Program-made: the position numbers and the translations under genes | In this document: piece after piece, positions 59 to 1,005 of the stretch | How the letters are laid out: each line of letters starts with the position of its first letter | Numbering within the stretch: the first letter of the stretch is position 1 | The notes under the pieces: generated by a model | What the model was told of the DNA's origin: nothing | Seen by the model: only the letters and a program-made list of their open reading frames with translations | The model's database searches: none | Sequence record: OR846573.1 | DNA from: a phage | DNA length: 1,005 bases | Strand: one strand, 5' to 3'

Positions 59-136
59 GGAGACTCATCCTCAGACCGGCAAGCCAGGAAAAGGTCGCAG
101 GAAAAACCGGCTTACTGTTTGTTTTTTTATATTTTA

Positions 137-786: not shown

Positions 787-1005
787 TGATGCCCGCTCTG
801 CAAAAACTCCCTTTTTCTGGCTTGCCTTTTTCCGGCATTTGCGGATATAGTTTTTCCGCTGCCGCAAAATCGGCAGCCGGGCGTGAGAACCCGAGTATGT
901 TATCGGCGACATATGACGCGCCATGCGTCTTTTTTTGTGTCGCAATCAACGCCACAGAGCGCCAGATTATGGTGTGGCGTGTGGTTTGCCGTGCAGGTAT
1001 GATCC
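783..1005 (+). CDS. Possible 3'-truncated ORF of unknown function, start overlapping the upstream stop (ATGA); alternative internal start at 897
   Basis: Seen in sequence: three in-frame ATGs at 783-791; the first overlaps the TGA of the upstream gene. The frame stays open for 74 codons to the window edge (about 3 percent chance in random sequence), but two minus-strand frames are also open here, so stop-poor composition may explain it. The translation (MMMPALQKLPFSGLPFSGICGYSFSAAAKSAAGRENPSMLSATYDAPCVFFCVAINATERQIMVWRVVCRAGMI...) is Cys-rich and not recognisable to me. A hairpin plus T-run lies inside it (915-936). Confidence 0.25.
   Translation, partial: MMMPALQKLPFSGLPFSGICGYSFSAAAKSAAGRENPSMLSATYDAPCVFFCVAINATERQIMVWRVVCRAGMI
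822..851 (+). promoter_or_regulatory. Possible sigma70 promoter: -35 TTGCCT (822-827), 18-bp spacer, -10 TATAGT (846-851)
   Basis: Seen in sequence: 4/6 and 5/6 matches to the consensus hexamers with an acceptable spacer. Position immediately downstream of the regulator gene would fit an early promoter of a P4-like left operon, but this is by eye only. Confidence 0.25.
858..877. promoter_or_regulatory. Perfect 7-bp inverted repeat GCTGCCG-caaaat-CGGCAGC; candidate operator or 5' RNA stem-loop
   Basis: Seen in sequence: GCTGCCG (858-864) and its reverse complement CGGCAGC (871-877) around a 6-nt loop. It lies just downstream of the putative -10 at 846-851, i.e. at the predicted transcript start. 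No T-run follows on either strand, so it is not an intrinsic terminator. Confidence 0.3.
915..936 (+). terminator. Candidate weak intrinsic terminator or attenuator: GACGC-gccat-GCGTC hairpin followed by seven T
   Basis: Seen in sequence: 5-bp GC-rich stem (915-919 / 925-929), 5-nt loop, then TTTTTTT at 930-936. Strand-specific: the minus-strand transcript would have the A-run before the hairpin. The stem is short, so termination is likely partial or regulated. Confidence 0.3.

Follow-up and report, generated by a model that had tools for sequence, protein, structure and literature searches.

The immunity system of satellite phage P4 operates through RNA. Its early promoter, PLE, is constitutive; the CI RNA, an RNase P substrate, is cut out of the leader transcript, and the pairing of CI with the seqA and seqC sites brings about premature termination, which is the basis of immunity (Hershko-Shalev 2016; PMC10111431). 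The SeqA RNA of P4 is a structural homolog of IsrK (Hershko-Shalev 2016), a correspondence on which PMC10111431 agrees. The two are described differently, in that IsrK acts in trans as an activator of orf45-anrP translation on its own read-through transcript, which was shown for Salmonella prophage Gifsy-1 only (Hershko-Shalev 2016), whereas P4 seqA is described as a site bound by CI RNA (Hershko-Shalev 2016; PMC10111431). A related arrangement is the c4-a1b1 motif, the targets of the C4 RNA in P1 and P7, which consists of two covarying hairpins encompassing the a1 box, directly 5′ of b1 (Weinberg 2010). That the IsrK/C4 module is shared between satellites and possible helper or competitor phages was remarked by Barquist 2013. 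In the EHEC papers searched, IsrK was mentioned only in passing.

The window analyzed here, i.e., the whole stretch of 1,005 nt of phage DNA (record OR846573.1), proved to be closely related to P4. Specifically, positions 1–996 aligned with positions 8554–9550 (minus strand) of P4 record X51522 at 93.9% identity over 996 nt, a match that takes in the replication origin (ori), vis, PLE, and the immunity leader; near the site of interest, window position x corresponds to P4 position 9550 − x. Homology is accompanied by synteny in the region between vis and the CI RNA: both elements have the order ori repeats, vis, PLE, leader, and CI RNA, and the P4 feature tables show ori repeats, ORF88 (vis), and an old "cI/ash" ORF at the corresponding positions. 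A preliminary description of this DNA, made from its letters, had pointed to the P4 region between vis and the early promoter, and that comparison became the decisive lead. Many E. coli O157:H7 chromosomes contain the window at 100% identity, and it was present in 1,059 of 5,426 complete E. coli genomes. In strain 7784, it sits in a P4-type satellite prophage adjoining tRNA-Leu, which carries an integrase, a restriction-modification hotspot, psu, delta, and a sid-like gene on one strand and an AlpA-family gene (vis), an "Icd-like" CDS (eta-like), three small ORFs, and a primase-helicase gene (alpha) on the other. The hotspot between int and psu holds a type II restriction-modification pair (4749–6774 in the numbering of the surrounding locus, L001), and genes for a phosphorothioated-DNA restriction endonuclease and type II Zorya lie downstream of the element (L001 15960–19005); both fit the picture of P4-like elements and their neighborhoods as known defense hotspots. 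Within the window, the repeat unit (A/T)CTGTTCACC occurs in five direct copies and one inverted copy, at 136–155, 191–198 (− strand), and 211–241, with further repeats at about 346–375. These are the "ori type 1 repeats" of P4, which are followed by three 10-nt "type 2 repeats" in the P4 annotation; this is the P4 replication origin, which is already known.

Two protein-coding genes frame the region of interest. The first, directly upstream, is vis (P4 ORF88; 520–786 on the + strand), found in the ORF list and matching the Pfam family Phage_AlpA (E 7.3e-21), which encodes an AlpA-family excisionase or regulator. Its stop codon overlaps the ATG (ATGA, 783–786) of an eta-like ORF of 196 aa on the same strand, which runs from 783 through the end of the window (1005) and on to window-equivalent position 1373 (PGAP CDS at L001 9783–10373) and matches Phage_ASH (Pfam; E 3.5e-22). 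The ORF matching Phage_ASH is the counterpart of P4 eta with its nested kil (PMC10111431). The promoter and hairpin described below both lie inside the eta reading frame, and transcripts that begin at the late promoter upstream carry the region as eta codons, which places a second constraint on its sequence. The NCBI annotation has at this region a single 196-aa CDS, "host cell division inhibitor Icd-like," that spans PLE, the IsrK-like RNA, the CI/C4 RNA, and seqC, and it has no RNA gene there (L001 to 10373). Because this CDS runs across all four, the Phage_ASH protein family model partly overlies conserved RNA genes.

The hexamers TTGCCT (822–827) and TATAGT (846–851) on the + strand are separated by an 18-nt spacer and followed by six bases (852–857) up to a palindrome. 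A consensus scan of the window returned this pair, matching at 9 of 12 positions, and no other promoter-like site; since shuffled windows yield 1.0 ± 1.0 such sites, the match taken alone is not significant. The comparison with relatives is more informative. Both hexamers are identical in P4, as is the entire segment 780–856, and the P4 record X02534 (1984) marks a "consensus −10 sequence" at the window equivalent of ~847–852. Furthermore, a −35/−10 pair ending 5–7 nt before the first hairpin was present in 115 of 141 relatives (from the family survey described below), compared with 6 of 141 control windows. The promoters of these relatives have spacers of 16–18 nt and mostly TTGACA or TTGACG as the −35 hexamer, with TTGCCT in nine unique relatives. 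The earlier proposal of a sigma70 promoter is supported by its position, identical to that of the P4 early promoter region, by the annotated −10 sequence, and by the promoters of the relatives; its remark that the palindrome starts on the seventh base after the −10 hexamer agrees with the sequence. By sequence correspondence, the two hexamers are assigned to the long-known, constitutive early promoter PLE of a P4-type satellite prophage. From promoter geometry, the PLE transcript is predicted to start at ~858; the PLE start in P4 and the coordinates of seqA in P4 numbering are predicted likewise. Since the distance between promoter and stem is fixed in 115 of 141 relatives, the first hairpin starts at or beside the predicted transcription start throughout the family. 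Among the 60 matches listed of 100%-identical O157:H7 genomes, EDL933 and Sakai, strains with published transcription start site maps, do not appear.

The palindrome consists of the arms GCTGCCG (858–864) and CGGCAGC (871–877) around CAAAAT (865–870) and is the only perfect 7 + 7 palindrome with a loop of 3–8 nt in the window. The preliminary description held it to be unlikely by chance at a specific position. The number expected to begin within any one 15-nt stretch is about 0.007, and a perfect 7 + 7 palindrome occurred somewhere in 31% of 2,000 dinucleotide shuffles (mean 0.45 per 1,005 nt). Read from the sequence alone, then, the combination of palindrome and promoter was accurately described but is only mildly unusual, and the support for it comes from comparison.

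For this comparison, we scanned IMG/VR for the pattern GCAAAATC-N6/7-CGGG-N6-10-CCCG, in which the loop and the stem of the second hairpin are fixed while six of the seven pairs of the first hairpin are free. The 6-nt gap takes in the subclass to which the window itself belongs (hairpins without a spacer), which the 7-nt gap misses. The scan gave 233 matches, of which 159 had 7/7 pairs and nearly all others had five or fewer and are chance matches; true members and chance matches were told apart by this bimodal distribution of pairs and, as an independent criterion, by the presence of a T-run downstream. Members picked by a T-run 30–95 nt downstream, a choice that does not depend on the stem, had 7/7 pairs in 46 of 49 cases, compared with 7 of 61 matches lacking the T-run. 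The 31 distinct stems have 95.4% of their cells paired and show variation on both sides at every one of the six free pairs, giving a covariation score of 0.995 versus 0.243 in shuffles (0 of 500 shuffles reached the observed score), and pairing collapses when the partner columns are slid along. These results contradict the reading that the palindrome arose by chance or through eta coding and has no function of its own. That reading could draw on the frequency of palindromes in shuffled windows and on the location within the eta frame; nevertheless, compensatory changes preserve pairing against many sequence backgrounds that are unrelated, the promoter keeps a constant distance, and the survey reaches well beyond P4-type elements (of the 122 loci whose upstream flank extended to 900 nt, only 20 had the P4-type upstream motif), so that we consider it scarcely credible. 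The palindrome was also rejected as a terminator of vis, as no T-run follows it.

The same survey bears on whether the symmetry is used in DNA or in RNA. A repressor or immunity-factor operator had been offered as one interpretation, in which a dimeric protein bound at +1 to +20 would block initiation or promoter escape at PLE. A perfect inverted repeat just past a −10 hexamer is in a frequent operator position, the low chance expectation for a given 15-nt stretch speaks in its favor, and protein operators of the lambda and P2 type likewise are inverted repeats near a promoter. However, half-sites recognized by a protein would be conserved, and the 142 unique relatives carry 71 distinct arm pairs. 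In addition, 35 of these 71 contain G·U pairs on the + strand (at least one in 15 of the 31 distinct stems of the T-run-selected set), and G·U pairs of an RNA stem are A·C mismatches in a DNA palindrome; neither conserved half-sites nor symmetry at the DNA level was thus found. P4 immunity, moreover, is RNA-directed premature termination on transcripts of a constitutive PLE (Hershko-Shalev 2016; PMC10111431), the immunity factor being an RNA whose complementary boxes lie beside the palindrome, at 884–890 and 899–906, and both Rfam covariance models described below fit the palindrome as an RNA hairpin. The locus differs from lambda- and P2-type operators in all these respects, and we regard a DNA operator as very improbable. 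Since the arms vary freely and G·U pairs occur, the palindrome is best read as a + strand feature that is transcribed and folds into an RNA hairpin where the PLE transcript is predicted to begin. Of the preliminary interpretation as a whole, the promoter, the P4 lead, and the reading as a regulatory-RNA stem-loop held up, while the operator did not, given the variable arms and the G·U pairs.

That the palindrome might be the first stem-loop of a regulatory RNA, as also suggested initially, is where the RNA family models lead. The Rfam model isrK (RF01394) matched 858–935 on the + strand with 71.2 bits (gathering score 50; E 4.8e-15; model positions 1–77 of 77), delimiting an IsrK-like/SeqA leader RNA of about 78 nt, and c4-a1b1 (RF03163) matched 845–897 with 50.8 bits (gathering score 46.7; model positions 1–53 of 53). 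Both place the palindrome as the first hairpin (P1 of c4-a1b1), and its stem covaries with G·U pairs in the survey above. This hairpin 1 (858–877, + strand; 7 bp, loop CAAAAU) is also recovered in the minimum-free-energy fold, and the fold of 858–937 is moderately better than those of shuffled sequences (z = −2.47). It is followed by hairpin 2 (878–893, + strand; stem CGGG/CCCG), taken from Rfam, with the loop box GUGAGAA at 884–890, the "a1" box and part of P4 seqA, and by a second seqA box, the b1-like GUUAUCGG (899–906, + strand), complementary to the CI RNA loop CCGAUAAC. The leader ends in an intrinsic-terminator-like hairpin, GACGCGCCATGCGTC followed by T7 (915–937, + strand), which was indicated by a terminator scan (915–929 plus T-run), Rfam, and the fold and forms the 3′ end of the IsrK-like RNA; the terminator stem and T-run are also present in P4, from which 915–937 differs only at loop base 925.

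The locus thus resembles both families closely. It shares with IsrK of Gifsy-1 a full-length match above the gathering score, hairpin 1, hairpin 2, the terminator, and a promoter directly upstream. With c4-a1b1 it shares two adjacent hairpins, a CAAAAU-type loop in the first and the a1 box in the loop of the second, b1 just 3′ of hairpin 2, a score over threshold, and a location upstream of a predicted C4-type RNA with complementary boxes; the hairpins of the family covary, as seen for hairpin 1 in our survey and for both hairpins by Weinberg 2010. It differs from c4-a1b1 in that the family consensus box is UUGGCA and the box here is GUGAGAA, and in that the P1 operon controls icd and ant while the operon here is the P4 replication operon (kil/eta, epsilon, alpha). 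In nucleotide comparisons, the terminator part of the leader (about 897–944) showed 91–95% identity to lambdoid, Stx2a-converting, and Salmonella phages, in which the matches lie inside or beside antirepressor genes, and the whole leader showed ~77% identity to N15-like Klebsiella phages (phiKO2, NAR688). Because the leader has matches in those phages, the IsrK/C4 module is common to satellites and possible helper or competitor phages.

Downstream of the leader, the C4 antisense RNA model (RF01695) matched window-equivalent positions 1034–1121 with 74.2 bits, starting 176 nt after the start of hairpin 1 and ~100 nt downstream of the isrK match. An RNAduplex scan of this CI-like RNA against the operon returned long, loop-ridden duplexes that could not be interpreted, and local alignment to the reverse complement was used instead. 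It located the complementarity to the leader at 874–906, where GUGAGAA (884–890) pairs with UUCUCAC of the CI/C4 RNA and the box at 899–906 with the CI loop, and it located a second complementary site, seqC, just after CI (1126–1146 and 1158–1166), which overlaps a GGAGG-N-ATG start. This fits P4, in which seqC covers the kil ribosome-binding site. As in P4, complementary boxes therefore lie upstream (seqA) and downstream (seqC) of the predicted CI RNA encoded between them.

Three partners have changed together relative to P4, in the manner of a three-way compensatory change. P4 has TTCACAGG in seqA, CCTGTGAA in the CI loop, and TTCACAGG(AGG) in seqC, whereas this element has GTTATCGG, CCGATAAC, and GTTATCGG(AGG), respectively, at window positions 897–905, L001 10082–10087, and L001 10156–10167; none of these positions is in hairpin 1. 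The other box, GTGAGAA/TTCTCAC, is common to P4 and this element. Since one box differs in all three partners, the element may have an immunity specificity partly different from that of P4.

These data also address whether the palindrome itself is the RNA target of CI, an "RNA operator" that would amount to seqA proper. It does lie inside an Rfam family named for the a1 and b1 targets of C4 antisense RNA, and it abuts the complementary boxes. The complementarity at 874–906, however, includes just the last four bases of its stem, and the changes relative to P4 that go along with those in the CI loop fall at 897–905, outside hairpin 1. In 130 loci of the family, an exact complement of at least 7 nt to the hairpin-2 loop was found downstream (median +159 nt) in 124 of 130 cognate comparisons versus 89 of 650 non-cognate ones, and a complement to the region just 3′ of hairpin 2 in 98 of 130 versus 216 of 650. 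In contrast, downstream complements to hairpin 1 gave no signal, either for the loop (9 of 130 cognate versus 68 of 650 non-cognate) or for the arms (11–21 of 130 versus 59–97 of 650), and ATTTTG occurred 95–520 nt downstream in only 18 of 130 relatives. Hairpin 1 was accordingly ruled out as an antisense target, with no cognate-specific partner for its loop or arms in the 130 relatives. Because the complementarity falls in the hairpin-2 loop and at 899–906, we consider the palindrome very unlikely to be the CI target.

Hairpin 1 itself is nearly the same in P4, with an identical loop and six of seven identical stem pairs. The two elements differ around the stem at 857–858 only (CGCC in the P4 record, CCGC here, at 856–859), and the P4 stem is, on account of this difference, one of 6 bp. 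P4 records have ...TTTTTCGCCTGCCG where this element has ...TTTTTCCGCTGCCG, and the P4 version weakens the stem base. A 60-nt probe carrying the P4 version had no match at 60/60 in the 1,564 E. coli genomes that carry the region, with a best match of 58/60. The sequence of the 1980s could have GC and CG inverted here, or the laboratory strain of P4 could carry a change of its own.

A further observation concerns the surroundings of the −35 hexamer. The 12-nt motif GCCRGRAAAAGG occurs in three exact copies, at 83–94 (+), between the −10 sequence of Psid and the start of the PLL transcript, and, in the opposite orientation, at 810–821 (−) and 825–836 (−), flanking the PLE −35 hexamer. Allowing up to one mismatch, we found five matches in the 19-kb locus, versus 0.5 expected, and the 17-nt inverted pair 78–94/810–826, with 16 of 17 positions matching, was reproduced by none of 300 shuffles. 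Of 20 P4-type IMG/VR loci, 19 retain both the copy adjoining the −35 hexamer and a distant one at −762 to −785. From this arrangement, the repeats may be a putative protein site linking the late and early promoters, and Vis would be our guess for the protein. The copies at 810–836 also encode Eta, so their conservation could reflect coding.

The best explanation of the feature as a whole, to which we assign a probability of about 0.87, is that it comprises the PLE promoter of a P4-type satellite and the first hairpin of a seqA/IsrK/c4-a1b1 leader RNA. The identity with P4, the membership in the RNA families, the conservation of the hairpin at the RNA level, its distance to the promoter, and the complementarity between boxes and CI support this directly. 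In the proposed mechanism, the PLE transcript would start with hairpin 1 at its very 5′ end and continue through hairpin 2, the short box, and the intrinsic terminator along an RNA of ~78 nt. Transcripts that read through the terminator would carry the C4-type CI immunity RNA ~100 nt further on, from which CI would be excised; it would then pair with the hairpin-2 loop and the box at 899–906 (seqA), as well as with the second copy just downstream, seqC, which overlaps the kil ribosome-binding site. As in P4, such pairing would lead to premature termination and keep the replication genes off.

What hairpin 1 contributes to this switch is a separate question. Because it is predicted to start at +1, is GC-rich, and has no pairing partner in the locus, we favor a protective or scaffolding role, and we would put at about even odds that it serves as a structural 5′ cap against 5′-end-dependent decay and as a scaffold presenting the hairpin-2 loop to CI. 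It is also conceivable, though unlikely, that the CAAAAU loop adds a sequence-specific contact with a factor, as a specific site for Hfq or for a termination or antitermination factor (boxB-like) that is needed for the termination switch. The isrK and c4-a1b1 consensus sequences, which the survey pattern does not constrain, both have the CAAAAU loop despite stems that differ from that of the window; Rfam names IsrK an Hfq-binding RNA; the 130 loci offered no RNA partner for the loop; and the whole system works via transcription termination (Hershko-Shalev 2016; PMC10111431). On the other hand, the factor is hypothetical, a stable 5′ hairpin suffices to explain selection for pairing, and the Rfam seeds carry other A-rich loops as well, e.g., GUCAAUCC and AACAACUU. 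The presence of CAAAAU in all 142 relatives follows from the search pattern, which fixed the loop, so loop conservation cannot be read from the survey.

The feature is real and functional and already known, being the P4 early promoter and first leader hairpin; in this respect, the analysis adds no new biology but re-identifies, from raw sequence in an O157:H7 prophage, the early promoter of the P4 immunity circuit together with its leader RNA. The module is common, with a 60-nt probe matching 1,564 of 5,426 complete E. coli genomes, and users of current annotation cannot see the RNA switch, as they are shown an "Icd-like" CDS and no RNA genes. What the survey brings out is a first hairpin whose structure is conserved but which is not the antisense target. 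P4-type satellites and the other phage contigs with this module appear to keep it where the transcript is predicted to begin, and the Rfam family includes P1. Should hairpin 1 be dedicated to recognition by Hfq, an RNase, a termination or antitermination factor, or the like, of host or phage origin, which we consider unlikely, it would be an undescribed third component of the C4/CI RNA immunity switch and not a passive cap.
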